The notes: generated by a model not told the origin, from the sequence alone. Shown: positions 4,883 to 63,890, counted from the first letter of the stretch. The stretch is 64,000 nt of DNA from Minisyncoccia bacterium (GCA_038244685.1 JBBRTD010000001.1:67009-131008), one strand, 5' to 3'. Numbers and translations: made by a program.

Positions 4883-4884
4883 AA

Positions 4885-5361: not shown

Positions 5362-5362
5362 A

Positions 5363-14249: not shown

Positions 14250-14950
14250 ATATTTTTAATTACTTTTTTTGTATGTAAATTATTGTCACTAACAATAAGG
14301 CCATCACGAATAGTAATAATTCTATCAGCATGCTCTGCCACATCAGGCTCGTGAGTAATTAATACAATTGTTCGGCCGAGTTCCCGATTTAACCTCTGAA
14401 AAGTTCCAAGAACAATCTCTCCTGTTTTTGTATCAAGGTTCCCCGTCGGCTCATCCGCTAAAATTAATGTTGGATTGTTTACAAGAGCACGGGCAATAGC
14501 AACACGCTGTATTTGACCTCCTGAAAGTTGATTCGATAAATGAAGAAAATGTGCTTCATCTAACCCTGCTGAGGTCAAGGCTTCTTTTGCTCTTTTTATT
14601 CTCTCTTCGTGAGGAATTCCATCATAAACTAATGGCAACATTACATTACGTAAAACTGTTGTTCTTGGAAGTAAATTAAAAGACTGAAAAACGAATCCAA
14701 TTTTATCCTTACGAATATCAGCAAGCTCATCATCTGTCAGTATTGAAACGTCTTTACCATCAAGAAAATAAGTACCAGAAGTTGGATTATCTAATGCTCC
14801 TAATATGTGCATTAGAGTTGATTTACCCGATCCAGAAGGCCCCATAATAGCGACGAATTCTCCATCCTCTATTTTAAAACTAACTCCTTTAACGGCCTGA
14901 AATGGTTCACCTCCAGAGTCATATGTTTTAACTATGTTATGTACTTCAAT
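14246..14950 (-). CDS. ABC transporter ATP-binding protein (MacB/LolD-type)
   Basis: [15 protein letters not shown] (Walker A), [15 protein letters not shown] and [11 protein letters not shown]. Likely start at [11 protein letters not shown]. Confidence 0.85.
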
Positions 14951-18140: not shown

Positions 18141-18740
18141 TTATTTATTATATTTAGGATGTTCTTCTGGTATCGATAATAGATAATTCGCATATCGTGA
18201 CATAGCAAAAAGAACAGACGACAAACGATTTAGATAAGAAATTGTAATAATTCCAACCTTACGATTCCCTTCTTCTACAACTGTAATTATCCTCCTCTCG
18301 CACCTACGGGCTAAAGTTCTACCAAAATCAAGTTCAGCACTTAAAATGCTTCCCCCAGAAATAGTAAATGATGTTATGGGTGGCAATACTTCACTTATAT
18401 AACTTATAATTGCTTCTATGTTTGTTAAATCCTTTTTCTTTACTGTCATATCAGAACCTGCGATTTCAGCTTGAATAATAAAAAGTGTTTGCTGTATGTC
18501 ATTTAAAATATCGCTAAATAATACTTTCTTTTTAGGGCTCAAAACTATCTTCATCTGTTCAATACCAGAGTAAACTTTTAAAATACCAATAAATGCATTT
18601 AGTTCATCTAAAACACCAAGAGCCTCTATGATATTTGCACTCTTTGAAATTCTCCCTTGATCACAATGAAAAAGGGTCGTGGTCCCATTGTCTCCCTTTC
18701 CAGTATATAAAGTGTGAGGTTTTTTAGTTATCTTTGTCAT
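18141..18740 (-). CDS. PduO-type ATP:cob(I)alamin adenosyltransferase
   Basis: YTGKGDNGTTTLF and ALGVLDELNAFIG. Likely start at MTKITKK. Confidence 0.7.
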   Translation of the reverse strand: MTKITKKPHTLYTGKGDNGTTTLFHCDQGRISKSANIIEALGVLDELNAFIGILKVYSGIEQMKIVLSPKKKVLFSDILNDIQQTLFIIQAEIAGSDMTVKKKDLTNIEAIISYISEVLPPITSFTISGGSILSAELDFGRTLARRCERRIITVVEEGNRKVGIITISYLNRLSSVLFAMSRYANYLLSIPEEHPKYNK

Positions 18741-18846
18741 ATAAATTATTATATCAATACAATAGATTAACCCCAACCATTGACTTTTCCCATAAATAGA
18801 GTATAATATAATTGAATTAAAAAACCTTAAAAAATACTTTTAAACC

Positions 18847-19149
18847 ATGAAGAGAGATAAATTTTTATTGTTAGTTACTAACTTAAACGCATTAGACGGA
18901 GCTGTTTCATACATAGAAAAAGAAACTTTACTTAAAAAAGATTTCAAAGACTATAGAGTAAGATTCTTCCACGGATTGTTCCAGAGTAAATCAGGAACTT
19001 TAAATAGAATCCTGAAAGAAGAAAAACACAATGAAATGAATGTCGTCTTTCAAAGAAATGTCCCCATCAAAAAAGTTATGAAGTTGATGGATCGAATTAA
19101 TGAAATATCAGAGGTAGAAAATATTATTTATTCTACTAGATGGATATAA
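18847..19149 (+). CDS. Small hypothetical protein (possible distant member of the tandem paralogue set)
   Basis: 100 aa with its own terminator downstream (19157-19186). Confidence 0.4.
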   Translation: MKRDKFLLLVTNLNALDGAVSYIEKETLLKKDFKDYRVRFFHGLFQSKSGTLNRILKEEKHNEMNVVFQRNVPIKKVMKLMDRINEISEVENIIYSTRWI

Positions 19150-20142: not shown

Positions 20143-21255
20143 TTAAATTTTCTTTGTACCGATAGCTTCACTTATATTTTTATATCCATCTTTCTTGAGC
20201 AACAGTGATAACTCTTTATTTATCTTACCAATAACATTTGGCCCTTCATATATCATTCCTGTAACCATCTGAACAAGAGTTGCTCCACGTCTGATTTTCT
20301 CATAAGCATCCTCCCCTGTAAAAATCCCTCCGCAGCCAATTATAATAAATCTATCCTTATATTTTTTATAAACTTCACTGATTAAATTATTTGAAAGTTT
20401 TTCAGTTGGCTTTCCACTGAAATTACCCCTGCCAGCAATTTTTATCTCTTCCTTATCAAAAGCAGGATTTGTCCTGTCTTTAACTAAGTTTGCAAATATA
20501 AAACCTTTTACCCATTTGTAATCATAAGCTACAGCACACAAAGCAAGTGTTTCTTCTGTTGTCTTTTCTGAATACATTTTAATAAATAAAGGTTTATTTA
20601 TATTTAAGTAAGACAATTTATTAAGCAACATCCCAAGCCCTAATGGCAGATCTAACTTATCTTTCAAATTTTCAACATTAATAAGATTTGGACATGAAAT
20701 ATTTAATTCAAAATAATCAAAATTATCTTGCTTTAAAACTTTTCCAAACGATATACATATATCTTCAATCATACTCTCAGTATTTTTATATGGCATATTA
20801 GTTGACCCTATACTTATTCCAAGAGGTATTCCACCTTTTTTCCCTGAAATTTTATTTAAAACATATTCAATGCCATTACTCTTAAAACCCTTATTTACAA
20901 GTAAGGATTTTGATTTAGGTAGCCTGCCCAACATTGGTCGAGGATTCCCTTCATATGGTAAATTTGTAACAGTTCCAAGGCTATGAAAACCAAATCCGAT
21001 TGTAGGCAAAACTTCTATTAAATCTGCATCGTAGTCAAAGCCAGCTGCAAGACCTACTGGATTCTTAAAATCTATATCTAATACTTTTTGGTTTAAGGTT
21101 AAATCTTCGTAATTGAATATCGATCGTAAAATATTTTTAGTAAAATCATGACGCCCCAAATAATCCCCTGATTTCAGGAAAAAATGATGAACATCATCAG
21201 CTGGAAATTTGAACAATATCGGCTTAACAATTTTTCGATAAATAAATCCAATCAT
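20143..21255 (-). CDS. pyrD: Dihydroorotate dehydrogenase (quinone), class 2
   Basis: GLAAGFDYDADL, GFGFHSLGTVT, IIGCGGIFTGEDAYEKIRRGATLVQMVTGMIYEGP, and an N-terminal membrane-association extension. Confidence 0.8.
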   Translation of the reverse strand: MIGFIYRKIVKPILFKFPADDVHHFFLKSGDYLGRHDFTKNILRSIFNYEDLTLNQKVLDIDFKNPVGLAAGFDYDADLIEVLPTIGFGFHSLGTVTNLPYEGNPRPMLGRLPKSKSLLVNKGFKSNGIEYVLNKISGKKGGIPLGISIGSTNMPYKNTESMIEDICISFGKVLKQDNFDYFELNISCPNLINVENLKDKLDLPLGLGMLLNKLSYLNINKPLFIKMYSEKTTEETLALCAVAYDYKWVKGFIFANLVKDRTNPAFDKEEIKIAGRGNFSGKPTEKLSNNLISEVYKKYKDRFIIIGCGGIFTGEDAYEKIRRGATLVQMVTGMIYEGPNVIGKINKELSLLLKKDGYKNISEAIGTKKI

Positions 21256-21258
21256 ATT

Positions 21259-21654
21259 TTACTCTGTTGTAATGCCATCAAATTCTTCTTCATTACTTTC
21301 TGCTTCTGCTTTGGTTGTACGGATAATTCCATCTTTGTGATGAGCTGGAGAATAAATTGTGTAAAGTTTAAGACCACTATCTCCGGCTATAACGTTATGA
21401 TTTGCCCCACAAGGAACAACAACAGCATCTCCATCCTTTACGTTATACTCTGTCTCATTAATAATAACCTTGCCCTCTCCCCCTTCAAAGCGGAAAAATT
21501 GGTCATTATCTTTATGTACCTCCATACCAATATCTTCTCCGGCAAGTAAACTCATAAGTACAAGCTGGCAATGCTCACCTGTATATAAAACCTTACGAAA
21601 ATTTCCGTTTGATAATGTTAATTCTTCAATATTTTGTTTAAATCCTTTTTTCAT
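21259..21654 (-). CDS. Cupin-domain protein
   Basis: Size and the two-motif pattern G..HCQLVLMSL...GMEVH... and VVVPCGANHNVIAG are cupin-like. Confidence 0.45.
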   Translation of the reverse strand: MKKGFKQNIEELTLSNGNFRKVLYTGEHCQLVLMSLLAGEDIGMEVHKDNDQFFRFEGGEGKVIINETEYNVKDGDAVVVPCGANHNVIAGDSGLKLYTIYSPAHHKDGIIRTTKAEAESNEEEFDGITTE

Positions 21655-47748: not shown

Positions 47749-48309
47749 CTAGTTTGAAGTTTCGCATCCAACACGAGAATACAATAACGTTTTAAATTCT
47801 TTGCTTATATCAGGAATAAGTATACCTCCCTCTTCAATTAGTGGATAGCGTAACTTTTCAATGCCCGTCTTATTTGCTTGATATATTTCCTTCTCTTTGT
47901 TTTTCGAACCTTCAACCATATAGGAATATATAGCTGTAATTTTATTCTGACTTAAAGTACCAATTATCGAACCAATATAGCCATTAATCATATCAGGTCC
48001 AGACTGTGTCCCTCTTTTTGTCCCAGTAACACTCTTTCCACTTATTGTTATATCTATAAATTCATCTACCTTATATGGAGCCTCATTTGTTGCTTCCTGA
48101 TTATAGGTATAACATTGCCGGCCATCAACTAAAGTAATGTTGGGTTGGGTTTTTGGCAAGACGACAGCAGAGTTATCTATTATTGCTATAGGAGTATTTT
48201 CTAATAAAAGAATTTGATTAACTAATTTAGGAACCCAATTTTTTTGGGTAAATAAAGCCCCGAAGCCAATGATGATTAAAATTAAAAGTATTATTCTTAT
48301 TGTTTTCAT
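47749..48309 (-). CDS. Membrane-anchored extracytoplasmic hypothetical protein
   Basis: N-terminal TM MKTIRIILLILIIIGFGALF, then ~160-aa domain with two Cys. Confidence 0.45.
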   Translation of the reverse strand: MKTIRIILLILIIIGFGALFTQKNWVPKLVNQILLLENTPIAIIDNSAVVLPKTQPNITLVDGRQCYTYNQEATNEAPYKVDEFIDITISGKSVTGTKRGTQSGPDMINGYIGSIIGTLSQNKITAIYSYMVEGSKNKEKEIYQANKTGIEKLRYPLIEEGGILIPDISKEFKTLLYSRVGCETSN

Positions 48310-48546: not shown

Positions 48547-48561
48547 AATATTATTATAATA

Positions 48562-48617
48562 CCGTTTTCTTAAATTGTAATCAATCTGTTGAAAAAGTAA
48601 TCTGATTAAGTCACGGC
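48562..48617 (+). repeat. Copy a of the ~55-nt hairpin repeat family (diverged)
   Basis: CCGTTTTCTTAAATTGTAATCAATCTGTTGAAAAAGTAATCTGATTAAGTCACGGC. Shares the core CCGTTTTCTTAnATTGTAATCAATCTGyTrAAAA with copies at 50463, 50522 and 63832. Confidence 0.7.
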
Positions 48618-48687: not shown

Positions 48688-48993
48688 CTAATTCTTCTCC
48701 CCTTTAAGTATTATCTTATTCTCGAAACCTCCCTTATCTTTCAGTTTCTGAATTCTAAGTTCTTCAACATTTTCATATTCAGGCAATACCTTCAAAGCTT
48801 CAATCACTTCTATAATATCGGCTAGTTCTTCTGGGTCATTTGCCTCCATAAATTCCTTCATCTCTTCCTCGAGTTTTTTAATTAATTCTATTTTATATTC
48901 TTCTGGTGAAGCAATCCTTTTTTCATATACAATCCCCTTTTTATCAAGAATCTCTGGAATGTTGTCTCTAACTAATTTATTATATTTTTCCAT
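48688..48993 (-). CDS. MazG/HisE-like all-alpha nucleotide pyrophosphohydrolase
   Basis: LVRDNIPEIL...EELADIIEVIEAL pattern. ~101 aa. Confidence 0.5.
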   Translation of the reverse strand: MEKYNKLVRDNIPEILDKKGIVYEKRIASPEEYKIELIKKLEEEMKEFMEANDPEELADIIEVIEALKVLPEYENVEELRIQKLKDKGGFENKIILKGEKN

Positions 48994-49144
48994 AATTTTA
49001 ATTATATCAAAATTCTAAGGTGATAAATAGATATTAAAAAGAAAAAATCACTTGGATTTTTTCTTTTTAATAAAGATAAATCCAAATGATTTAAATAATG
49101 GGTCGGAGCTGCCTTAATGGTACACTCAAACCCGATGTTCGCTC

Positions 49145-49330
49145 CTACTTCTTCTGGTTTTTATTGTTATCCCAGCCTTCTTTGTAGGACTCTTCATGAC
49201 CCTTGGGTGGATTGTAGGAACCACCAAAAATTTGATCCGCAATTATGTCTGCAGTGGAGCTACGTTCACTACTTTTGCTGGAATCTTTCTGGCCCTGATT
49301 ATGGGCTTCTTGATCATAGTTTTTTGACAT
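49145..49330 (-). CDS. Small hydrophilic protein (61 aa), stress-protein-like composition
   Basis: MSKNYDQEAHNQGQKDSSKSSERSSTADIIADQIFGGSYNPPKGHEESYKEGWDNNKNQKK. Preferred over the overlapping plus-strand Cys/Trp-rich ORF. A terminator hairpin lies 3' at 49036-49072. Confidence 0.4.
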   Translation of the reverse strand: MSKNYDQEAHNQGQKDSSKSSERSSTADIIADQIFGGSYNPPKGHEESYKEGWDNNKNQKK

Positions 49331-49526
49331 GACTATCGTTTTTTACTTTACCGAAATCGTTCCGGCTAACGTCTCGCCCTTAATTGAAACAAGAATACTA
49401 AATATAAAATTGATTATTATACCCACTATTCTTGCTTCAATATTCTCTAAGGTACTTATGTTATTCGCAATATACCATACATTTTGCTATTCATCAAGGG
49501 GTGATAGATTGGGGTAAAATTAGAAT

Positions 49527-49883
49527 TTATTTCCTTAAAACTGAAGATTGGAACCATCGCTCTTGGAAGAAAACCTTAGTCATTATTTCTTCATCAGATA
49601 AATTAATTCCTTCTGGCACAACCACCAGTTTATCATCATCATTATCAGACCTATGGATTATTGCAATTACTTTACCTTTAGCTTTTTCTAATGGTTGATT
49701 AATACCCAAATAATAAGCATCTAGCTCTTCCCCATCAGGAGATAACACACCTTTTATATAGCCATAATTTACCTCGTATATAAAATTGTGTTTGGGATGC
49801 TTTGTACCCAAAGGTCTATCCATAATAACTTCCACTTCTTTTCCAAGAAAAAATTTTGCGAGTTTTAAAGATTCTGATTCCAT
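49527..49883 (-). CDS. Short inorganic-pyrophosphatase-like protein
   Basis: NYGYIKGVLSPDGEELDAYYLG...AIIHRSDNDDDKLVVV resembles the Ppa motifs NYGFIPQT..DGDPLDVLV and DEGExDDKIIAV, but the protein is only 118 aa. Confidence 0.35.
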   Translation of the reverse strand: MESESLKLAKFFLGKEVEVIMDRPLGTKHPKHNFIYEVNYGYIKGVLSPDGEELDAYYLGINQPLEKAKGKVIAIIHRSDNDDDKLVVVPEGINLSDEEIMTKVFFQERWFQSSVLRK

Positions 49884-49916
49884 TTTTTAAATATCGTTTT
49901 AAAAGTAAATAACTAA

Positions 49917-50450
49917 TTATTTAATCCAATCAATTTTTGTTACAGACCCATTCTCATATCCAGGAATATCATAAAAATATTTAGGTTCCCCTCCTTCTTT
50001 AAGCGTCTCAAGAATTCTACCAACTCCAGCATGGCTGACTAATAAAATATTATCAGATGAATCATTTAATTCTTTAATACAAGAAATTACTCTCTCACTA
50101 AATAGTTTGGGGTTTTCGGCACCAGGAGCATTTACTAAATCAGTTGACGTAGCTTCATGGATAGGAGTGCCAGAAAGATCTCCCATATCATATTCTGTAA
50201 TGCGGTCATCAATAATAATTTGAGATATATCAAAGCCTAATTCTACGGCTATAATTTGTGCTGTTTTCAATGCTCTCTTAAGTGGAGAAGAAATTATTCT
50301 ATTAATTTTTAAATTTTCTTTTTTAATTTCGATTGCTGTGGATAAAGCCTGTTCTTCGCCTTTTTTAGTTAGGATAGAATCATCTCTTTGCCCTGCAAAA
50401 GTATGTCGTATATTAGCTTCGCTCTCCCCGTGTCTTACAAAATATATCAT
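49917..50450 (-). CDS. Histidine phosphatase (PGAM/SixA branch), free-standing paralogue of the IleRS-inserted domain
   Basis: MIYFVRHGESEANI (RHG), IISSPLKRALKTAQI, IIIDDRITEYDMGDLSG and ILLVSHAGVGR. Confidence 0.8.
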   Translation of the reverse strand: MIYFVRHGESEANIRHTFAGQRDDSILTKKGEEQALSTAIEIKKENLKINRIISSPLKRALKTAQIIAVELGFDISQIIIDDRITEYDMGDLSGTPIHEATSTDLVNAPGAENPKLFSERVISCIKELNDSSDNILLVSHAGVGRILETLKEGGEPKYFYDIPGYENGSVTKIDWIK

Positions 50451-50462
50451 TTTTCTATTATA

Positions 50463-50521
50463 CTCCCGTTTTCTTAGATTGTAATCAATCTGTTGAAAAC
50501 GCAGTCCAGCGAAGTCGTGGC
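50463..50521 (+). repeat. Copy b of the ~55-nt hairpin repeat (near-identical to copy d)
   Basis: CTCCCGTTTTCTTAGATTGTAATCAATCTGTTGAAAACGCAGTCCAGCGAAGTCGTGGC. Confidence 0.8.
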
Positions 50522-50580
50522 GCCCGTTTTCTTAGGTTGTAATCAATCTGCTAAAATGCAATCCGGGAAGGGCCAAAATA
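50522..50580 (+). repeat. Copy c of the hairpin repeat (tandem to b, tail diverged)
   Basis: GCCCGTTTTCTTAGGTTGTAATCAATCTGCTAAAATGCAATCCGGGAAGGGCC... Confidence 0.75.
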
Positions 50581-50626
50581 GGCTATAAAAGTCGTTACAG
50601 TGAGTTTGGTTATGTTGTAACTTATT

Positions 50627-51133
50627 TTAAAATTTATTAATATCTATATATTTTTCTACAGCATTAACATCATCTAATTGGTAAAGATGATTTCTATCAG
50701 CTAATTCATTTTTATACGCAACTAAATCATAAGGGTTGATTAATGATATTTCTATACCATCAACTACTTTCATTATATTGGGAAATTTACAATAATTATC
50801 TTTTGTTTGAAACCATTTAGTTTGTTCTTTATTACTCATCATAAGGGTATCGATATCAGTTATATCTATCTCCTGACTATTATAGTTAATTGAGAGAGTA
50901 TTACAGTCCCATTTAGCATTTGAATAATGTTTTGGACCAGCAGTTATATAATCAGAAACTTCTGAAACAATAACCGGAAAATACTTCCCTGAAAGAGAAA
51001 TATCTATATCGTTAACTGATCTAGTTGAGCCATATACATGAGCTGCAAATCCGCCACCTATTCTATAGGGTATATTATTTTTATTTAAAATTGAAACTAT
51101 CCATTTTAGAGCATTTATAGTTTTTTCTTCCAT
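50627..51133 (-). CDS. Nucleotidyltransferase, ANT(2'')-like (aminoglycoside 2''-adenylyltransferase family fold)
   Basis: NIPYRIGGGFAAHVYGSTRSVNDIDISL parallels WIGGGWAIDARLGRVTRKHDDIDL of ANT(2'')-Ia. ~168 aa. Confidence 0.5.
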   Translation of the reverse strand: MEEKTINALKWIVSILNKNNIPYRIGGGFAAHVYGSTRSVNDIDISLSGKYFPVIVSEVSDYITAGPKHYSNAKWDCNTLSINYNSQEIDITDIDTLMMSNKEQTKWFQTKDNYCKFPNIMKVVDGIEISLINPYDLVAYKNELADRNHLYQLDDVNAVEKYIDINKF

Positions 51134-51209
51134 AAATTTTATTATATCAAAGTTACAAAGTGATAGACAATTATTAAAAACTAGTTATATAAAATATAGT
51201 TTAATAGTT

Positions 51210-51275
51210 GCTGCCAGACCTGGATTGTGAGTACAATTCTAGAAGTTTACATATTCAGTAAAGCTTTGCTATTCT
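51210..51275 (+). repeat. Direct repeat DR1 related to the tRNA-Gln 3' end (distal boundary of the candidate islet)
   Basis: GCTGCCAGACCTGGATTGTGAGTACAATTCTAGAAGTTTACATATTCAGTAAAGCTTTGC is ~80% identical over ~60 nt to 57413-57474. Its first 16 nt are identical to the complement of the tRNA-Gln 3' end. Confidence 0.6.
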
Positions 51276-51292
51276 TTGTTTAACTTTAAAAA

Positions 51293-51733
51293 TTAAAATT
51301 CTATTTCTCCTACATCGACTGAAGGATATGACTCCTTGTAGCATTCACCACGAGATCCATAATAAGAAACAATGCGTGCAGAAAAATCTACATCATAACC
51401 AATGACACCAGCATCCCAAGAAGTAGAGAGAAACTCTGCAAAAGTGCTCTGTCCTGCTTGGTCATTACGAATAGCTATAATAACTGCTTCTTCATTAAAA
51501 TCAGGAACATTGCTCATGCCACTTATTAATGGAGTACCTTGCTGTACGACTACACCATCTTTCATTACATAAATACTCTGTAACCCTGGCAATGACCATA
51601 GATTGTGTTCTACACCCGCAAGCCTCAAACATTCAGCAAGATATGCGAAACCTCCAATTTTTGGGCGGTGTGCCATTGCGTGCTTCATTGCTATTTGTAG
51701 TTTTTCTTGAGATGAATTCATAAATACAAGCAT
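51293..51733 (-). CDS. DUF1398-like (YbcV-like, prophage-associated) protein; visibly GC-richer than neighbours
   Basis: HRPKIGGFAYLAECLRLAGVEHNLWSLPG...QQGTPL...VPDF...DQAGQSTFAEFL...WDAGVIGYDVDF pattern. Codon usage departs from the local AT-rich norm. Confidence 0.3.
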   Translation of the reverse strand: MLVFMNSSQEKLQIAMKHAMAHRPKIGGFAYLAECLRLAGVEHNLWSLPGLQSIYVMKDGVVVQQGTPLISGMSNVPDFNEEAVIIAIRNDQAGQSTFAEFLSTSWDAGVIGYDVDFSARIVSYYGSRGECYKESYPSVDVGEIEF

Positions 51734-51803
51734 AACATTTTTCTCTTTTAGAGAAAAATCTACATAACTTTTCTATTTAAACCTTACTTAGTTTTAATAA
51801 AAG

Positions 51804-52379
51804 CTAAATTATTTTAATTAACTTAGGTCGTGCTTTTTTCCAATCTTCTTTTAGTAATCCATACATATAAGAATCATGAATTTTACCAGACGCTCTACAT
51901 TTAGTATTCTTTCTTTGCATTCCTTCTAATTTATATCCAACTTTTATTTGAGTAGCATTCGAAGCTTTATTTTCTCTATACACAGAAGATCTTATTTTTC
52001 TTAATTTAAGTTTATTAAATACAAAATCATTAAAAGCTATTTTAGCCTCAGTCATATAACCATTCCTCCAATATTTTCTATTTACCCAAGAACCACTATC
52101 CCCTGTCCCAGAAAATCGATTTATTTTATGGATACCAATAACTCCGATTACTTTCTTTTCAGATTTTAACTCAATAAAAAAAACATATTCATCTGAATTT
52201 TTTGTTTCCCATTTTTTTATCATTCCTTTGATAAAATCCTCGGCATCTTTTCTTTTATAAGGATATGGAACTCTAGATAACCATCTTGAAATTTCAAAAT
52301 CACTAATACCATCAAAAATATCTTTCCAATCGCTCGTCTTAGGCTCTCGAAGTATTAATCTTTTGGTTTCAAGTTTCAT
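51804..52379 (-). CDS. GNAT family N-acetyltransferase (RimL/RimJ-like)
   Basis: LETKRLILREPKTSDWKDIF...VIGVIGI...RKYWRNGYMTEA. Confidence 0.65.
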   Translation of the reverse strand: MKLETKRLILREPKTSDWKDIFDGISDFEISRWLSRVPYPYKRKDAEDFIKGMIKKWETKNSDEYVFFIELKSEKKVIGVIGIHKINRFSGTGDSGSWVNRKYWRNGYMTEAKIAFNDFVFNKLKLRKIRSSVYRENKASNATQIKVGYKLEGMQRKNTKCRASGKIHDSYMYGLLKEDWKKARPKLIKII

Positions 52380-52394
52380 AATTATATTATACTC

Positions 52395-52751
52395 CTATTT
52401 TTTAGTCTTTTTCAAATTTTCAATAACTCTAAATTTAGTAATTCTGTATATTAAATCAAAAGGAATAGGTTCTTCAAACGAAAATTGAACACTCCCTTTT
52501 GACATCTTGTATTTAGATAACTCTTTTTTGAATTTAATAATACTTGAGGGTGCAGGGAAAAATCCGACATGTTTTTTGAACCCACCGAAGTGAACCAAAT
52601 TACCATTCAACCTAAAGGTGGGAATACCATAGCTAATCACCTCATCTGCATTAGGTGCAGCTTTTTTAATTGTGTTTCTTACTTTATTTAAAATATGCTG
52701 AATATCTTTAGGAAAATTTTTTATATAATTATCGATATCGCTACTTTTTTT
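52395..52751 (-). CDS. DUF1801 (YdhG-like) domain protein
   Basis: NYIKNFPKDIQHILNKVRNTIKKAAPNADEVISYGIPTFRLNGNLVHFGGFKKHVGFFP. Likely start at MKKSSDIDNY. Confidence 0.4.
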   Translation of the reverse strand, partial: KKSSDIDNYIKNFPKDIQHILNKVRNTIKKAAPNADEVISYGIPTFRLNGNLVHFGGFKKHVGFFPAPSSIIKFKKELSKYKMSKGSVQFSFEEPIPFDLIYRITKFRVIENLKKTKK

Positions 52752-52832
52752 CATAAATATAATTATACCAAAACAATAGTTAGAACGCTTGCTGGCAGTT
52801 TGGGTCAACGTCGGAACTTATTTAATAGAAAA

Positions 52833-53543
52833 TTAATACTTTTTACTTGAACGTAATTTTCTTATTTCACTAGAAGTTATGAATATTGAGCTGGCACATA
52901 ATGGAAGCATCGCCATTAAAGCCCTTATTCTACTTGTTGTATATTTATAATCTTTATTATTTTCAGTTAAAGTTTCACTCATGTCTAGGCAATGTATATT
53001 TTGTGAATATTGTCTGTATACATTGTTGTACCACCTAGAATTTTTTGTTAATCTTGCTCTCTCATCGATTTTACAACCAAACAAACCATTAGTCTTTATT
53101 TTTTTATATTCTTCTTTAGTAAAATGACTTTTTATTTCTTCCATACCCTTATCCCAATTGGGAAACTTTTTTGAATATTCCTTATCCCAATCAACGGTTA
53201 CAACTAATTTATTTTTATGAGCTATTTGGGCTGCTAAAATTCTAAAAAAAGCATTATCTTTTTCTTTACTTATTAAGAGTAATAAGTAGTCTAAATTTAT
53301 TTTGATTTCCACTAACACTCTCATTAATATTTGAGCATCGGAGACTTGTCCTACATATGCTAATCCCAAGATTGATTCAGTAAGGCTACTTGTCCTAAGG
53401 ATAATACTTTTTAAATACATATCTGGTAAAGGATTTTTGTTCTGTGGGATTTCAATTTCATTAGCAAATTCTAATCCAGATTTTATAATATTCTTTATTA
53501 GAGTTAATTCTTTGATTTTAACGGCATCATTTATTTTTTTCAT
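52833..53543 (-). CDS. Hypothetical protein (236 aa; soluble, helical)
   Basis: ORF only. No motif assigned. Confidence 0.4.
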   Translation of the reverse strand: MKKINDAVKIKELTLIKNIIKSGLEFANEIEIPQNKNPLPDMYLKSIILRTSSLTESILGLAYVGQVSDAQILMRVLVEIKINLDYLLLLISKEKDNAFFRILAAQIAHKNKLVVTVDWDKEYSKKFPNWDKGMEEIKSHFTKEEYKKIKTNGLFGCKIDERARLTKNSRWYNNVYRQYSQNIHCLDMSETLTENNKDYKYTTSRIRALMAMLPLCASSIFITSSEIRKLRSSKKY

Positions 53544-53582
53544 AAATATTTAATTTAAATGGATATATTACACACCGTTGTC

Positions 53583-54335
53583 TTATTTATTTTTTTTAGA
53601 AAATAAATTTTTGACAGCCTTCTTGCAAGTAGAAATTAATTTTTTGCCGTTAGTTTCAAGATAATCTATCCAAGAAAAGATTGCTCTATCTATAAATAAT
53701 CCACCAATTACAAGACAAATAAGAACAGTATATATATAGGATAAATTATTATAATTTATACTGCTTTCATATGCCCACTTCAGGTTTATATATGTAAATA
53801 CAGCTAAAGAAATTGCATGTAATAAAACATCAGAGTTTATATTTTCATTAGTGCTTTCTACTCCTTCTTCTTCCCACTGACTACTCATTCCATTTCCATT
53901 ATCTTCTCTTTTTGAAATAGCCTTTTTGTACCAATCATTATTTATTGGTAGATAATTATAGTGCCAGTCTCTTCTTCGTTTATAGCCACGTTTGTCATAA
54001 GACCATATTATTCTGTCTACAACTAAGCTTAATAATGCAATTATCACTACTAACGTACATAAAACATAAAACCATTTATATTGTTGTAAAAATGGTAAAT
54101 ATTTTTCGATTTCTTTTAGACACATGATTAATACTATAAGGATAGAAATAGTAAGAAAAGTTCGATTAATTTTTGATGAATGTTCTTGTGGTTTAAAATA
54201 TATATAACGACCAAATGCTTTGTAAATCACATACATTAAAATGTAAATAACAGCCAGGTGAAACATAGTTGCTTCATGAAGTAACACATTTTTTAATTCA
54301 TCAAAAGATAGTAGAAATAAATTTTCATTTAACAT
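53583..54335 (-). CDS. Hypothetical polytopic membrane protein
   Basis: ORF with 5-6 hydrophobic segments. Confidence 0.4.
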   Translation of the reverse strand: MLNENLFLLSFDELKNVLLHEATMFHLAVIYILMYVIYKAFGRYIYFKPQEHSSKINRTFLTISILIVLIMCLKEIEKYLPFLQQYKWFYVLCTLVVIIALLSLVVDRIIWSYDKRGYKRRRDWHYNYLPINNDWYKKAISKREDNGNGMSSQWEEEGVESTNENINSDVLLHAISLAVFTYINLKWAYESSINYNNLSYIYTVLICLVIGGLFIDRAIFSWIDYLETNGKKLISTCKKAVKNLFSKKNK

Positions 54336-54348
54336 TTTTTATAATTTA

Positions 54349-54873
54349 TTAATTATTAATTAAAATACCACTAAGAGCATTTAGTAGAGAAGCAACTATT
54401 CCTATAATTGCAACTGTTTTATATTTTTTACTTTCTTTTGGAAAATTATTAGAAAACTCCAATGTAGCAAAACTTGTTAGAATTCCAAGAGGTGGAAGCA
54501 GCCATGTTAAAATGTTTGACCAAACAATCCATTGTATCAGTGTTATATTTATATTTTTTCTTTTTAAGTACCATTTACCAAACCATTGTCCAATATAGTA
54601 AGCACCGAAGAACATTAAAAGAACAAGTAAGCCAAGATATTTACCGATGAGCATACCACCTATTATACTTACAAAAGAAACTACATAACCAATTATTGTT
54701 TTAAAAGTATTGGTCATTTTTTTTGATTCCTTTTTTTCTGCCACTGATGGTGTTTTTTCTTGTTCTTGTTCTTTATTAATTATCTTTATTCCATTTCCAC
54801 ACGATGAACAAAAGTTAGCTTCTCCTTGAATTTTATTTCCACAATTTTGACAAAACATATTTATTATAAGCAA
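54349..54873 (-). CDS. Zinc-ribbon (N-terminal CxxC-x10-CxxC) membrane protein, paralogue 1 (4 TM)
   Basis: MFCQNCGNKIQGEANFCSSCG, then 4 TM segments. Confidence 0.55.
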   Translation of the reverse strand: MLIINMFCQNCGNKIQGEANFCSSCGNGIKIINKEQEQEKTPSVAEKKESKKMTNTFKTIIGYVVSFVSIIGGMLIGKYLGLLVLLMFFGAYYIGQWFGKWYLKRKNINITLIQWIVWSNILTWLLPPLGILTSFATLEFSNNFPKESKKYKTVAIIGIVASLLNALSGILINN

Positions 54874-55418
54874 TCTGCTTTATTAAATGATACAAAATAG
54901 CTTTGTGCTATATTTTCGACTGTATATGAATATTCCATATTAATATCACGATTAAGTAAATTTTTTGTTGCGTCATTGCCACAAACACTTTTTTTTAAAT
55001 AAACTTTAATTGTTTCATCTGTCACACCTGTTGTATCAACATTTGTAAGAACAGCATGATAACGAATTGCATTTGTTTCTGCTGTGATATCTGTCAACAT
55101 TGTTGAATCATCTAATTTAGTAGGTAATACCATACTTGATTTTGTTTCTTTAACGGCTTGAATAATTAATTCTTCTTTTGACTGAGAACTACTACTTATA
55201 GAGGAATCTCCTTGAATTAAATATTTACCAACCCCTATAGCTAATAAAAAAACAACCACAGAGACTACACTCATTAAAGTAGATTTAATTCCTTTTTTGG
55301 GTTCTTCTGAGATTATTTTTGCCTCTTCCTTTTTTGATTCTTCTTCTACTTTTTGACCACACTTAGAACAAAACTTAGTATTACTATCAAGTTCAGTATT
55401 ACAATTTTTACAAAACAT
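54864..55418 (-). CDS. Zinc-ribbon membrane protein, paralogue 2 (1 TM + ectodomain)
   Basis: MFCKNCNTELDSNTKFCSKCG, then one TM and a Ser-rich ectodomain. Its 5' leader is near-identical to that of paralogue 3. Confidence 0.55.
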   Translation of the reverse strand: MFCKNCNTELDSNTKFCSKCGQKVEEESKKEEAKIISEEPKKGIKSTLMSVVSVVVFLLAIGVGKYLIQGDSSISSSSQSKEELIIQAVKETKSSMVLPTKLDDSTMLTDITAETNAIRYHAVLTNVDTTGVTDETIKVYLKKSVCGNDATKNLLNRDINMEYSYTVENIAQSYFVSFNKADCL

Positions 55419-55468
55419 ATAATTATTTCTTATGATAAAAATTTAAATGACTAATTCAAATTAAAATA

Positions 55469-55978
55469 CTATAAACCATTCTGCCTTAAGCACATTTCAT
55501 ATTCTTTCTCTGTGGCTTCTGTAACATTTGTTTTTTCGGATTGTGGAAGTCTCTCTTTTGTATCCTTTTCTAATAAAAAACATTTAACTGACTGTAACCT
55601 ACCATTCCCTTGATACTCACCTCCAGTTCCGCATTTTTCATCGTATACTTTTTTATTTATATCGGCTTGCTCTTTTATAATACCTAAATCAGCAGGAATT
55701 ACTTCTGTAAACCAAGAACACCCTTTTTTTATATTAGATGGTCTTATTTGAACCCAATAAAAAGTAAATCCAATTATTAAAATAATAGCTACTATTACTA
55801 ACCCCAAAATTGAATGTTTATTTTTTATAAATTGTTCTTCTAAACTAGATTCTGGAATTTGAGATAATTTTCCTTCTTTAACTATATTAACATCAGCAAT
55901 AATTTTAATTTCTTTTCCGCAACTTCTACAAAATTTTGCCTTTTCTTCATTTTCAGTTCCACAATTTTTACAAAACAT
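55469..55978 (-). CDS. Zinc-ribbon membrane protein, paralogue 3 (1 TM + Cys-containing ectodomain)
   Basis: MFCKNCGTENEEKAKFCRSCG, then one TM and an ectodomain with 4 Cys. Confidence 0.55.
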   Translation of the reverse strand: MFCKNCGTENEEKAKFCRSCGKEIKIIADVNIVKEGKLSQIPESSLEEQFIKNKHSILGLVIVAIILIIGFTFYWVQIRPSNIKKGCSWFTEVIPADLGIIKEQADINKKVYDEKCGTGGEYQGNGRLQSVKCFLLEKDTKERLPQSEKTNVTEATEKEYEMCLRQNGL

Positions 55979-56011
55979 AGAATTATTATTTATGATAAAT
56001 ACTTTGAATGA

Positions 56012-56815
56012 CTAATTCAAATGAACATATATTTTCCTTTCTCTTATTTTAGAGGCCTCAGCTAATGCATCTGAAATTTCTTTTAAGTGTGAATGTATCA
56101 TTTCGTTAGAAATATGCATAGTATTAAAACCATTTTTGTGAGAATAATAACCTCTATTTAAATCAGCTACGATTTGATGGGGATTCGTTAGATGTTGAAT
56201 TCCATCAACTTCAACATTTAATTTTGCTCTAGGGATTGCTAAATCTATATGCTTATGTCCATCATCTAATTCTAGATATACCCTAATGCCAAGTCTTTCT
56301 AGTGCATCTTTTAAATTATAAGCTTCTTTTGTTGGGCTTGGCTTCTTATGAAAAATTCTTAATGTATTATTTTTATCTAAATAATTTTTTATTAATTCAA
56401 TATCTTTAAAATCTTTTTCCCTTCCTAGTGCTTTTTTAAATTTGCAAAGCTCTTCAAGATTCATAAAAGGAATATCTTCTATTATTTTAGCTGATAAAAT
56501 CGCTTCTTCAACTGTTGTATTATATTTATCCCAATTTAATTTAGGGATAATCTCAAAAATATCTTTTTTTAAATGAATATTTCCATATCTTAATTCCTCT
56601 TCCCAATCTCCTGTACTCTTTAATATTGTATGTAATTTTGCAGTAATGGCTATATCGATATCAATAGCATCTCGAATATTAAGAACATCTAATATGCCGC
56701 TTCCAACAACGACATATTCTCCATATGGAAAATTTAATGATTTAATTTTTTCTATTATGTTCATTTTTATAAAAACACAATTAAGCAAAGAATATCGACT
56801 TTCTCCTAAATTCAA
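56012..56815 (-). CDS. Fusion protein: N-terminal nucleotidyltransferase-fold domain + C-terminal DUF559 (Vsr-like endonuclease fold) domain
   Basis: YVVVGSGILDVLNIRDAIDIDIAI (NTase GS...D.D). C-terminal HIDLAIPRAKLNVEVDGIQH (DUF559-like ...E.DG.QH). Alternative start MNIIEKIKSL at 56764. Confidence 0.4.
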   Translation of the reverse strand: MNLGESRYSLLNCVFIKMNIIEKIKSLNFPYGEYVVVGSGILDVLNIRDAIDIDIAITAKLHTILKSTGDWEEELRYGNIHLKKDIFEIIPKLNWDKYNTTVEEAILSAKIIEDIPFMNLEELCKFKKALGREKDFKDIELIKNYLDKNNTLRIFHKKPSPTKEAYNLKDALERLGIRVYLELDDGHKHIDLAIPRAKLNVEVDGIQHLTNPHQIVADLNRGYYSHKNGFNTMHISNEMIHSHLKEISDALAEASKIRERKIYVHLN

Positions 56816-56833
56816 TTTTTCATTATCATGAAA

Positions 56834-57340
56834 TTATTTATCCTTGGTATTATCAATAATAATATTTGCCTCAGTTAGCAAAGATTTTGTTATTCCAATA
56901 TTCCATGCCCTCATAACACCATGCCATTTCCTAAACTTAAGAAATTGTTCCCAAGTTAATTCAATTATTCTCTTTAATCTATAGTTCTTAAATATCTGAA
57001 CAATAATTACATATTCAAATTTCTTATCTGGTATTGAAGTGCTTCCCTTCTCATCTATATTATGAAAAACACCTGTTGTGTTTCCAGGTTCAGAAATTGT
57101 CTTAATACTATATCTCTCTCCTTTTCTACTTACTGCATCTATATTTTTAGTTCCTTCTGGCGCAGCCTGTAAATTAGGTAGACCACTTATTGAATTATAT
57201 GTTTCTATTACTAAGAATTCCCCTCTCTCTCCAACTATATTGTTTGTCCTAACAAGATTACGTTTTTTAAGTTCTTGTTGGATATCTGCATATCCCGTCC
57301 ACAACTCTTCATTGTTAAATTCTTGTAATTCTATTTTCAT
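56834..57340 (-). CDS. Hypothetical protein (168 aa), operonic with the NTase-DUF559 gene
   Basis: 18-nt gap to the downstream gene. No confident motif (VGERGEFLV...NIDAV...). Confidence 0.4.
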   Translation of the reverse strand: MKIELQEFNNEELWTGYADIQQELKKRNLVRTNNIVGERGEFLVIETYNSISGLPNLQAAPEGTKNIDAVSRKGERYSIKTISEPGNTTGVFHNIDEKGSTSIPDKKFEYVIIVQIFKNYRLKRIIELTWEQFLKFRKWHGVMRAWNIGITKSLLTEANIIIDNTKDK

Positions 57341-57412
57341 ATAATTTAATTTATAAGTGATTAAATATTTTTATATTGTATATTTTAACATTATATTTAA
57401 TTTTAATATATA

Positions 57413-57549
57413 GCTGCCAGACCTGGACCGTGAGTACACTTCTCGAACCTTACAGGTTCAGTACAGCTTTTCCGTTCGTGAGTATACTCACAAGGAAAAG
57501 CGTTTCTCGTCCAGGGCGCAAATGAAGAAATTCATTTGCTTCTGGCAGC
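57413..57549 (-). ncRNA. Degenerate tRNA-Gln-like structured element (~135 nt): tRNA acceptor/T-arm ends enclosing nested hairpins; also carries direct repeat DR2
   Basis: Minus-strand reading: UGCCAGA-AGCAAAUGAAuuucUUCAUUUGC...CUUUUCCuuGUGAGUAUACUCACgaacGGAAAAG...GGUUCGAG-aaguguacucacgg-UCCAGGUCUGGCAGC. The 5' 7 nt and 3' 16 nt are identical to tRNA-Gln. Function unknown. Confidence 0.4.
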
Positions 57550-57590
57550 AATTTAAAAAACCTGCACACAAAGTGAGGTTTTTTAAATTG

Positions 57591-57661
57591 CTGCCAGACC
57601 TGGACTCGAACCAAGATAACCTCCTCCAGAGGGAGGTGTCCTACCATTAGACGATCTGGCA
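57591..57661 (-). tRNA. tRNA-Gln (anticodon CUG)
   Basis: Hand-folded: acceptor UGCCAGA/UCUGGCA (U1-A72, G73 as in bacterial tRNA-Gln), D-arm GUCU/GGAC, anticodon stem CCUCC/GGAGG with loop CUCUGGA, T-arm CUUGG-UUCGAGU-CCAGG. 71 nt with no encoded CCA, followed by a terminator hairpin. Confidence 0.8.
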
Positions 57662-57739: not shown

Positions 57740-58474
57740 ATGGTAGCTATGAATACAGAAATAAAATATGAGCCTAGACATATAACGACAGATGATATTA
57801 AAAATGGTTGTATGACTTTGACAGGTGGAGATGGAGAAGAGACAAAGTTATGTATGATACAAGAAGAATTCCGCCAAGGAATAGATACAGTTACAGATAT
57901 GGGGCCTTCAGTTACTTTTTATGGTTCAGCAAGACTTAAAGAAGATCACCCTGAATATATTAAAGCTCATAAACTTTCTTATAGAATTGCCAAAGAGCTA
58001 GGTTACATTATTATGTCAGGAGGTGGAGCTGGAATTATGGAAGCTGCTAATCGTGGAGCATATGATGCAGGGATTCCCTCAATAGGACTAACAATCAGAC
58101 TACCAAAAGAGCAAGCTACTAATCCTTATGTGACCAAAGAAATACCTTTTCATTTTTTCTTTGCTAGACAAGTCTCAATGTCTTATACAACTGAAGCTTG
58201 TGTCTTCTGTGCTGGTGGCTTCGGAACCTTCGATGAATTATTTGAAATACTAACACACTTACAAACAGGAAAAATAGGTAAAATTCCAGTAATATTATAT
58301 GGCTCAGAATTCTGGAATCCTATTCAAGGTATCATTAAAGAAGTTTTAATTGAAAAGTATAAAACAGTTAACCCAAATGATGTAAATTTATACACAATCA
58401 CAGATGACGAAGATGTAGTTCTAGACATCATCAAGAAAAGTAAAATACGAAACGGTGAAGACGAATTAAATTAA
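57740..58474 (+). CDS. LOG-family protein (cytokinin riboside 5'-monophosphate phosphoribohydrolase / TIGR00730 Rossmann protein)
   Basis: VTFYGSARLKEDHPEY, IIMSGGGAGIMEAANRGA and FCAGGFGTFDELFEILTHLQTGKI. A TTGGAA-N17-TAGAAT promoter lies upstream. Confidence 0.75.
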   Translation: MVAMNTEIKYEPRHITTDDIKNGCMTLTGGDGEETKLCMIQEEFRQGIDTVTDMGPSVTFYGSARLKEDHPEYIKAHKLSYRIAKELGYIIMSGGGAGIMEAANRGAYDAGIPSIGLTIRLPKEQATNPYVTKEIPFHFFFARQVSMSYTTEACVFCAGGFGTFDELFEILTHLQTGKIGKIPVILYGSEFWNPIQGIIKEVLIEKYKTVNPNDVNLYTITDDEDVVLDIIKKSKIRNGEDELN

Positions 58475-58476
58475 TA

Positions 58477-58508
58477 TAAAAGCCCCCGACTATAGTCGGG
58501 GGCTTTTA
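58477..58508. terminator. Bidirectional intrinsic terminator
   Basis: AAAAGCCCCCGAC-tata-GTCGGGGGCTTTT. Confidence 0.75.
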
Positions 58509-58516
58509 TATTAGAA

Positions 58517-63831: not shown

Positions 63832-63890
63832 GCCACGACTTCGCTGGACTGCGTTTTCAACAGATTGATTACAATCTAAGAAAACGGGAG
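63832..63890 (-). repeat. Copy d of the ~55-nt hairpin repeat (minus orientation), abutting the tRNA-Thr 3' end and 27 nt upstream of the CysK-like ATG
   Basis: Reverse complement = CTCCCGTTTTCTTAGATTGTAATCAATCTGTTGAAAACGCAGTCCAGCGAAGTCGTGGC, identical to copy b over 59 nt. Confidence 0.8.

Follow-up and report, generated by a model that had tools for sequence, protein, structure and literature searches.

In this study, we examined the DNA downstream of a tRNA-Gln gene in a 64,000-nt stretch of a Minisyncoccia bacterium genome (GCA_038244685.1, JBBRTD010000001.1:67009-131008; hereafter the window, with positions counted from its first letter). An earlier note, made from the sequence of the window, had described positions 51210-57661 as a decayed or integrase-less islet in which direct repeats of about 60 nt bound a single 6.2-kb cargo. 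Read along the tRNA strand, the layout that we propose is tRNA-Gln, a terminator hairpin, a structured element of 137 nt and a succession of putative cassettes, and the interpretation that we favour, with confidence a little better than even, is that the locus is an integrase-less cassette array anchored at tRNA-Gln and built by serial recombination at tRNA-end-like sites. This interpretation is carried mainly by the following observations: the sites share one orientation and lie only downstream of tRNA-Gln, gene content differs among relatives, one cassette occurs in three contexts, and the fold of the element is kept family-wide.

The anchor of the array is tRNA-Gln(CUG), placed on the minus strand at 57590-57661 by ARAGORN and at 57591-57661 by the Rfam tRNA model (58.3 bits), in agreement with the earlier note; its 3' end, GGUCCAGGUCUGGCAGC, is referred to below as X. 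The array starts 39 nt past the gene, on the same strand. A terminator-like hairpin (stem, loop and U6), extended by a perfect 23-bp inverted repeat, lies at 57541-57598 on the minus strand, as found by repeat search and folding. The arms of this repeat (57541-57563 and 57576-57598), which are 100% complementary around a 12-nt loop, pair the tRNA 3' end and trailer with the leader and 5' arm of the element, and the composite region of tRNA end, hairpin and element was also folded. Equivalent terminator-like hairpins stand ahead of the element copies that we inspected in relatives.

The element (57413-57549, minus strand) is a 137-nt mimic of a tRNA end, as judged from its sequence, its fold and its score of 160.2 bits against R1, the covariance model described below. 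It begins with UGCCAGA, ends with GUCCAGGUCUGGCAGC, which is identical to the end of tRNA-Gln, retains GGUUCGAG of the T-arm, and contains the hairpins GCAAAUGAA/UUCAUUUGC, GUGAGUAUACUCAC and CUUUUCC..GGAAAAG, all as had been read in the earlier note. P1 is the closing stem (GCUGCCAGA / UCUGGCAGC), P2 is the variable hairpin, P3 pairs CCUGGAC with GUCCAGG, and P4 (CUUUUCC / GGAAAAG) is conserved and carries a variable hairpin on top; a GUA-loop hairpin and a small hairpin are also present, and the final 16-17 nt are the 3' end of tRNA-Gln. The GC content of the element is 0.48 versus 0.32 for the genome.

Folding and an Rfam search, the checks that the earlier note had proposed for this element, gave a very stable structure (-65.6 kcal/mol versus -34.8 +/- 3.8 in dinucleotide shuffles; z = -8.1) and no match to a described family. 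No Rfam 15 model matched over the element at the gathering score or at E <= 10 in the window, nor at E <= 0.1 in five element-rich loci; a known RNA family was rejected, the search at E <= 10 having returned only tRNA and noise (miRNA-like matches on the long hairpin). Neither ARAGORN nor the Rfam tRNA model called the element, even at E <= 10, the only call being 57590-57661, and its interior has no equivalent of a D-arm or an anticodon arm. Group I introns have been reported in Patescibacteria tRNA genes (PMC13011429); a group I intron-containing tRNA was also rejected, the element being too short and without tRNA exons.

A decayed copy of the 3' module of the element, ending in a perfect 16-nt X, lies at 51210-51275 on the minus strand (repeat search; covariance model 29 bits, a weak match), and is both the distal direct repeat and the end site of cassette 2. 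The direct repeat claimed in the earlier note survives formal alignment: the repeat search pairs 51210-51274 with 57413-57477 at 82% identity over 65 nt, an ungapped comparison of the two copies gives 53 identical positions out of 66, and the 50 nt that precede the common 16-mer agree at 38 positions (binomial P = 2e-13). The partner of the distal repeat is the element's own 3' module, and not the tRNA itself. In the window, the 15-mer GCTGCCAGACCTGGA has three occurrences, versus 0.02 in shuffles. Of 12 differences in the distal copy, 10 are GC to AT; its hairpins are lost, its diverged part has drifted to the AT content of the islet, and its last 16 nt are perfect. Identity is thus 76% upstream of X versus 16/16 within X (P ~0.012 under an equal decay rate), a crossover-like signature.

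A second type of site, which we term preT, was first noticed in two related loci, L003 and L043 (loci collected from other genomes and metagenomes are given L numbers throughout), as a motif of ~35 nt ahead of internal elements and after unrelated genes. Its consensus is AAATAAGTTCCAACATCGACCCAGAC-NGCCAGC, and in appearance it is a pseudo T-arm hairpin with an acceptor-3'-like tail behind it. The window carries one such internal cassette-end site, AAAUAAGUUCCGACGUUGACCCAAAC-UGCCAGC, at 52789-52832 on the minus strand, which starts directly past the stop codon of a DUF5677 gene and is followed by TGGTATAAT-N7-ATG of a DUF1801 gene. An nhmmer profile built from 17 copies from relatives detects it with E = 2.3e-11 in a 13.7-kb sub-window and with E = 3.2e-9 across all loci. 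Neither this site nor the 23-bp inverted repeat had been recorded in the earlier note. One to three copies of preT occur per locus in L001, L003, L043, L054, L158, L172, L121, L146 and L079, all of them on the tRNA-Gln strand and downstream of tRNA-Gln or a Gln-type element, and there is no other significant match in ~1.8 Mb of loci. The last 16 nt of preT agree with tRNA-Gln ends at 10.4 of 16 positions and with the ends of any other isotype at no more than 7.8 of 16 (17 isotypes).

The genes ahead of preT are mutually unrelated, on which ground we rejected preT as the 3' untranslated region of one gene family. Five of its six variable core positions fall on third-codon positions of a reverse frame, LLAVW[VD][DE]VGT[YF]L.ENK*, in the copies of the window (52789-52832), L001, L003, L043, L054, L158 and L172. 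An origin as the remnant of a reverse-strand gene, as in a split integrase of the SSV type whose attachment site lies inside the recombinase frame, was also rejected: the reverse open reading frames (ORFs) are only 10-40 codons long, the motif is found in no protein of a 5.8-billion-protein collection, and no full-length gene stands at the array ends.

Cassettes and their counterparts in relatives

The region that had been read as one 6.2-kb cargo is split by preT at 52789-52832 into cassette 1 (57412-52789, with a preT end) and cassette 2 (52788-51210, ending in the decayed 3' module and X), and the variable stretch continues to ~49 kb. Cassettes here range from 0.6 to 4.6 kb and from one to seven genes. 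Cassette 1 (52833-57412 without its end site) holds seven genes, all on the tRNA strand, according to ORFs, Pfam, PADLOC and gene calls on the identical Logan contig L187. They encode a methyl-directed type II restriction enzyme (56834-57340; full-length PADLOC mREase_II match, E = 5.6e-54), a 267-aa protein with a DUF559 endonuclease-fold C-terminal domain (56012-56815; Pfam), three zinc-ribbon membrane paralogues (55469-55978, 54864-55418 and 54349-54858; Pfam), a 250-aa membrane protein without an assigned family (53583-54335; ORF) and a DUF5677 protein (52833-53543; Pfam). The zinc-ribbon genes (54349-55978) form a tandem triplication with an exact start-to-start spacing of 560 nt and 5' ends that are 62-74% identical.

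Cassette 2 (51276-52788 without its end site, minus strand; Pfam, gene calls on L187/L188) encodes DUF1801 (52395-52754), a GNAT acetyltransferase (51804-52379) and DUF1398 (51293-51721). Cassette 3 (50595-51209, minus strand) comprises a leaderless-type promoter, TTTGATATAAT-N7-ATG, the gene NTase168 (50627-51133) and, just past its stop codon, a decayed preT-like site (~50595-50630) with a weak nhmmer match at 50630-50612. The rest of the variable stretch (49000-50594, minus strand) contains REP-like repeats (50465-50556), a histidine phosphatase gene (49917-50450), a gene for a 118-aa pyrophosphatase-like protein (49527-49883) and a gene-poor 533 nt. The gene content listed in the earlier note holds for DUF1398, GNAT, DUF1801, the three zinc-ribbon genes and DUF559, and has to be amended elsewhere: one of its 'unknown' genes is DUF5677, the 'operonic partner' of the DUF559 gene is present and can now be named as the mREase_II gene, and the nucleotidyltransferase (NTase) half of the proposed NTase-DUF559 fusion has no profile match, its basis being a G-S...D-x-D motif read in the sequence. 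The absence of an integrase from the islet was borne out by profile searches and a motif scan; among the ten ORFs, searches with Pfam, PADLOC and NCBIfam found no phage or mobility gene and no integrase pseudogene.

An extended -10 box, TGNTATAAT-N7-ATG, with the start codon 6-9 nt on and no Shine-Dalgarno sequence, precedes many genes, of cassettes and flanks alike (57341-57412, 52755-52788, 51134-51209, 50451-50470 and 48994-49020), which suggests that leaderless or near-leaderless mRNAs may be the rule in this genome.

The CTP synthase encoded beside the tRNA shares 82-86% identity with that of four Ca. Nomurabacteria / Paceibacteria genomes (L001, L002, L003 and L043). Upstream synteny is kept in relatives, comprising a tRNA cluster, several common genes, and the order pyrG, LOG, tRNA-Gln. 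Downstream gene content differs in L001, L002, L003, L043 and L109, and for the ten islet genes there is no homologue at the tRNA-Gln locus of any relative examined. The common flank genes resume at 48993 and 48309: those at 48688-48993 and 47749-48309 match L001 at 18713-19012 and 20891-21388 (tblastn), and a homologue of the latter lies in L109 at 4839-5384, 4.5 kb past the element of that locus. The variable stretch therefore extends from 57412 to ~49000, and not only to 51210. No other 6.1-kb stretch of the window has a GC content as low as that of the islet (0.281 versus a mean of 0.319, sd 0.016), as a check proposed in the earlier note has shown. Identical contigs from SRR19962012/14 carry the same arrangement, and exact-protein matches come only from the same strain, with the islet present.

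The clearest case of cassette re-use is that of NTase168, which has homologues in L003 (14005-14487, 69% identity) and L043 (19508-19996, 82% identity; tblastn). When the three copies are aligned, the homology extends from the promoter as far as the preT-like site and no further; on both sides, the neighbours of the cassette differ in all three genomes. In L050 (with a Fic-domain gene) and L054, the tRNA is separated from the element by cargo, and L002 has an element-type 3' module after a GIY-YIG gene. L003 has four elements, separated from one another by genes and all on the tRNA strand. Some of its X variants match tRNA-Gln alleles of other genomes (L018 and L007 types) and would therefore have been imported from other genomes, and one of its elements is chimeric, with a 5' arm that matches the end site of the preceding cassette. 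L054 also contains two matches to the Rfam LOOT RNA motif above the gathering score (14291-14399 and 1005-1121; 66 and 59 bits), one of them in the cargo between tRNA-Gln(UUG) and the elements, beside a DUF559 homologue of the 267-aa protein.

Altogether, at least ten related loci share this modular, site-bounded architecture. The description as a decayed islet falls short of this. The earlier reading is partly supported: it was right in spirit in placing integrase-less accessory DNA, with tRNA-end repeats at its bounds, at a tRNA hot spot, as the upstream synteny and the differing downstream genes of relatives bear out, wrong on the 135-nt element, and incomplete on the architecture.

A structured element family behind tRNA genes

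The element had been described as a degenerate tRNA-like element, the 3' part of which marked an attachment site. We find that it is neither a degenerate tRNA nor a one-off attachment scar and that it belongs to a conserved structured family that follows many tRNAs. The first additional copies were found by BLAST in L003. RNAalifold, run on seven copies, gave a consensus structure with 39 pairs, of which 16 show compensatory changes, and the covariance model R1 was built from these copies. R1 matches many of 80 Paceibacteria loci; 94 loci were added by one metagenome pattern scan, giving 73 matches in total at E <= 1e-5 across Paceibacteria genomes and metagenomes. In an alignment of 68 distinct sequences, 91.7% of the cells are paired, versus 68.9% in column shuffles and 38-48% when pairing partners are slid by 1-3 columns, and 35 of the 39 base pairs show changes on both sides. 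This alignment was fitted to the model and the pairing is somewhat inflated by it; independently of this fit, the copies at orthologous tRNA-Gln genes differ by single compensatory steps. In P2, the arms are GCAAAUGAA/UUCAUUUGC in the window, GCAAGUGAA/UUCACUUGC in L109 and GUAUGUGAA/UUCACAUAC in L097, and in further copies the sequence of this hairpin changes with pairing retained. Like compensatory steps occur in the GUA-loop hairpin and the small 3' hairpin, and the junction nucleotides GAGAAAG, UAC and the GUA loop are conserved. The element, of 120-200 nt, is a well-supported new structured family, apparently undescribed, and literature searches for a described equivalent found none.

Most elements with upstream sequence lie 12-50 nt past a tRNA gene, on the same strand and behind a terminator-like hairpin. 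Their hosts include about ten isotypes (Gln, Ala, Val, Leu, Lys, Ile, Asp, Thr, Met and His). In intact copies, the last ~17-24 nt copy the 3' end of that very tRNA, from the 3' strand of the T-loop and T-stem through the 3' strand of the acceptor to the discriminator plus one, and the 5' strands of P1 and P3 are complementary to this copied end. For 44 of 285 tRNAs, the gene's own 3' 13-mer recurs downstream; it recurs upstream for none of the 285. Because a U.G pair of the tRNA in L001 is matched by C-G in its element, the 5' arm is the Watson-Crick complement of X and not a copy of the tRNA 5' strand. We know of no described parallel for element ends that track the neighbouring tRNA.

The family does not require cargo. 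Gene-less arrays of two or three units follow tRNA-Val, tRNA-Ala and tRNA-Ile (L116, L128 and L180); L116 has three units with three distinct cores, all with tRNA-Val arms, and L128 has three tandem units after a tRNA-Ala-type end. The element is patchy among related genomes, being absent at the tRNA-Gln of L005-L007. Of 59 next genes, 38 share the strand of the element and 21 are convergent; on account of these 21, the element was rejected as a 5' leader of the next gene. The families commonest downstream of elements are NUDIX, release factors and FtsEX (145 ORFs, Pfam).

The covariation, the conserved junction nucleotides, the high GC, the constant strand and a position kept across diverged relatives speak for a functional folded molecule. 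Wobble pairs were used to ask whether the element acts as RNA or DNA. The ratio of G-U to A-C is 71:49 over all element helices versus 53:17 in tRNA acceptor stems from the same loci, which is not decisive. It is 27:11 in the inner helices P4 and P5, near the 53:17 of the acceptor stems, and 34:32 in P1 and P3, and P2 is nearly pure Watson-Crick.

Several individual copies have features of their own. In L096, an element at 999-1119 follows a tRNA-Ala 3' exon (880-960) at which ARAGORN called no tRNA, and this tRNA-Ala gene is probably interrupted by a group I intron; 270 nt upstream is the end of an ORF for a Xer-like tyrosine recombinase, which is not obviously linked. In L043 (12867-12945 and 13835-13990), an insert of ~27 nt, CGAATGAGTACATTCGCCTACTGGGTA (variant end CCTACTGGGT), occurs four times in two elements, also in P2, and looks like a miniature insertion that tolerates or targets elements. 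In L003 (12066-12160), 18 nt that repeat the 5' end of the intact tRNA-Gln, TGCCAGATCGTCTAATGG, stand just upstream of that gene. A GC-rich hairpin and then TAGGA come next, and the arrangement looks like a tRNA 5' fragment that an insertion has displaced. Three tRNA-Gln genes of other Paceibacteria (L010 14896-14967, L037 11802-11873 and L075 11983-12054) are each followed within ~60 nt by a partial duplication. The duplicated part begins at the anticodon stem or the variable region and reaches the 3' end, and it lies only ~25 nt past the gene; these copies look like ordinary integrase attachment scars, distinct from the structured element.

Proposed serial cassette insertion and its alternatives

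We propose that a cassette would combine a leaderless-type promoter and one to seven genes with an end site resembling the 3' end of tRNA-Gln, which could be either preT (a pseudo T-arm plus ...NGCCAGC) or an element-type 3' module plus X. Cassettes would have entered by serial recombination at the ...CAGC end of the tRNA-like site, through an enzyme whose gene would lie at another place in the genome or on a transient element, and each insertion would have pushed older cassettes outward. The element, usually the first feature past the tRNA, may act as a resident structured landing pad, with insertions striking its X and sparing that of the tRNA, and may also be able to travel as a gene-less cassette.

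Serial insertion behind a tRNA has a precedent in the tycheposon islands of Prochlorococcus, in which successive tRNA integrations drive older elements into the island, partial tRNAs are scattered, and complete integrase-bearing elements are rare (bioRxiv 10.1101/2020.12.28.424599). These islands resemble the array in their tRNA anchor, in a streamlined genome, in partial tRNA 3' copies of one orientation that flank cargo, in the presumed displacement of older insertions outward by newer ones, in content that mostly lacks an integrase, and in adaptive or defensive cargo. They differ in that no hallmark integrase or replication gene was found in the arrays here, that our units are far smaller (0.6-4.6 kb), and that the commonest end site here, preT, is a conserved pseudo-T-arm motif common to genomes, not a plain host tRNA fragment. 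The array has the position on the 3' side of a tRNA gene and the direct repeats of tRNA 3' sequence that are used to recognise tRNA islands, and has no adjacent integrase. To our knowledge, no tycheposon has, between tRNA and cargo, an element with a strand complementary to the tRNA end.

Integrons comprise an IntI integrase, an attI site and cassette arrays in which each cassette ends in a folded attC. By analogy, the array here is a unidirectional series of small, modular cassettes with unrelated genes, each with a 3' site, and includes gene-less units and re-used cassettes; the P1 arms of the element around P2 and the core may likewise be compared with the R''/R' of attC around its variable centre. 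Unlike in integrons, no intI is adjacent (the divergent neighbour is a LOG-family Lysine_decarbox protein, followed by pyrG), cassettes have their own promoters, the ends are tRNA-derived ...CAGC sequences and not the RYYYAAC / GTTRRRY of attC, the fold is branched and not a bulged hairpin, and the anchor is a tRNA. CTX-phi and other elements that exploit XerCD use a folded single-stranded attP at dif. The element could be regarded as analogous to this attP in having inverted copies of the target ~100 nt apart, whose stem could recreate the target duplex (P1 and P3 would recreate that of the last ~16 bp of the tRNA gene), and in forming tandem arrays at one site; it differs in that the target is a tRNA gene end and not dif, that there are no phage genes, and that single-stranded DNA is involved here by inference only. 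A different analogy is with the tRNA-like domain of tmRNA, YrlA Y RNA and mascRNA, in which a mimic of acceptor and T-stem closes a larger structure, and by which the element would be a plausible substrate of tRNA-end enzymes. Unlike the element, these RNAs neither track a neighbouring tRNA nor follow a terminator, and it matches none of their Rfam models (E <= 10). Among recognised classes, then, the element has the conserved compensatory structure in many copies of a structured nucleic acid, gives no cloverleaf by tRNA models as a functional tRNA or tRNA pseudogene would, and is unlike a miniature inverted-repeat transposable element (MITE) or insertion sequence in that its arms vary with the tRNA and no transposase was found near the copies examined.

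Several points weigh against serial insertion. No relative shows a precise empty site for the cassettes of the window, or its flanks joined across X, and because of this, insertion at X is something that we infer and do not observe. No recombinase was found among islet and flank proteins (Pfam, PADLOC, NCBIfam), a motif scan of the ~1.8 Mb of loci gave two tyrosine-recombinase-like (Xer-like) ORFs, none of them in the window, and the 25 families reported, out of 132, for the 145 ORFs downstream of elements include no integrase, although a single one could be hidden. Nor was a circular form, phage or plasmid carrying the element or preT found. IMG/VR pattern scans for the element, as a phage or plasmid attP, gave nothing or chance matches in unrelated GC-rich contigs; a degenerate preT pattern gave >120 matches there, and every one examined proved to be a coincidental match within a Dcm-type methyltransferase gene of a high-GC phage. 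By blastn, only tRNA-Gln genes matched among INPHARED phages, and there was no match among PLSDB plasmids. The family is not tied to cargo: ordinary housekeeping genes follow many elements, and the next gene is often convergent. TATAAT-N7-ATG also stands ahead of conserved flank genes, so promoters are uninformative about cassettes. Homologous recombination between conserved repeats after DNA uptake is a serious alternative, and the chimeric elements of L003 (el2/2b and el3), with breakpoints in the conserved core, fit it equally well.

One possible explanation that builds on such recombination, and which we regard as credible but doubtful, is that the element is a tRNA-like non-coding RNA made by read-through of the terminator and that cassette variability is its by-product. 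P1 on P3 would mimic an acceptor and T-stem, to be trimmed by RNase P, a 3'-end nuclease and the CCA-adding enzyme to a stable RNA of ~130 nt, and the repeats and tRNA would be homology anchors for taken-up DNA, with no dedicated recombinase. This is in keeping with the multi-branched, GC-rich fold, with the strong covariation, stepwise compensatory substitutions in orthologues and conserved junction nucleotides, with the tRNA-like wobble ratio of P4 and P5, with a position that is always on the tRNA strand and is kept across relatives with 82-86% identical PyrG, and with the lack of an associated protein partner or recombinase, the housekeeping genes often next to the element and the L003 chimeras. 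It fits less well with the terminator-like hairpin and U-tract ahead of every element inspected, even in tandem arrays of three, where distal copies would be barely transcribed and have no space for promoters of their own. Processing needs shape only, which leaves the match of the arms to the sequence of the neighbouring tRNA unexplained, P1 and P3 have no G-U bias and P2 is nearly pure Watson-Crick, and neither preT between unrelated genes nor cassette homology that ends at sites is accounted for. A further explanation, which we hold to be very unlikely, would make the terminator and element a selfish, non-autonomous mobile unit (MITE-like or a satellite) that copies itself to tRNA 3' ends while cassettes hitch-hike. 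The tandem gene-less arrays with differing cores and the same tRNA-specific arms, the spread over about ten isotypes and the patchy presence at tRNA-Gln all suit such a unit. Its terminal inverted repeats would nonetheless vary with the tRNA, so that no transposase of fixed end specificity could be using them; in addition, no transposase lies nearby, orthologues diverge gradually with compensatory change, as in vertical inheritance under selection, and foreign arms are kept after transfer in L003, so arms are not regenerated on insertion.

The islet could also be a single classical integrative element whose own integrase acted at the 3' end of tRNA-Gln and was later lost, leaving the 60-nt repeats as attL and attR. 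Direct repeats that end in tRNA 3' sequence, low GC, a defence gene in the cargo, differences among relatives and the classical partial-tRNA duplications at tRNA-Gln in L010, L037 and L075 speak for it. However, the structured element stands at the corresponding place in relatives that lack this cargo (L001, L003, L043, L109 and L172) and is no attachment scar of this insertion, preT splits the 6.2 kb internally, the ten ORFs include no mobility gene or integrase pseudogene, and the searches of IMG/VR, INPHARED and PLSDB found neither element nor sites. This explanation is largely refuted by the distribution of the family, and we consider it quite improbable.

Returning to serial cassette insertion, a more speculative form of it, which on balance we think unlikely, would make the element a programmable attachment site defined by nucleic acid. 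A trans-acting Patescibacteria enzyme would read the core and the arms would direct insertion by any tRNA: the 5' arms, split by P2, would pair with the element's own copy of the tRNA 3' strand, so that, folded as single-stranded DNA or RNA, the element would restore the duplex that the tRNA gene has over its last ~16 bp, and the inserted units would be promoter-bearing cassettes or the bare element. If true, this would be a tRNA-anchored counterpart of the integron in which the choice of target is written in the element and not in a protein.

Patescibacteria have among the smallest bacterial genomes and few recognisable mobile elements, and their exchange of accessory and defence genes is poorly understood. 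The locus and its relatives present a recurrent, compact architecture, with small cassettes lined up behind a tRNA at tRNA-end-like sites and no integrase in view. If a dedicated enzyme exists, this would be a new cassette-capture system; if none does, conserved repeats alone would organise the hot spot. In either case, the R1 model and the preT profile could find such arrays and delimit accessory regions in metagenome-assembled genomes.

Further repeats in the window

A second repeat family, CAGATTGATTACAAYCTAAGAAAACGGG, with the inner hairpin AGAUUG-AUUA-CAAUCU, occurs at 48561-48588(-), 50465-50492(-), 50523-50550(-) and 63861-63888(+). One copy abuts the 3' end of tRNA-Thr(CGU), and 50465-50521(+) agrees with 63888-63832(-) over all 57 nt. 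Between NTase168 and the histidine phosphatase gene lie two copies with a spacing of 58 nt, and contigs assembled from short reads of the same strain break at this place. The repeats are REP- or MITE-like in appearance and are spaced like those of a CRISPR, but only two units are present. Between the convergent LOG and pyrG genes, a perfect 21-bp palindrome without a spacer, TAATATAAAAGCCCCCGACTA / TAGTCGGGGGCTTTTATATTA, lies at 58472-58513 and is probably a bidirectional terminator.

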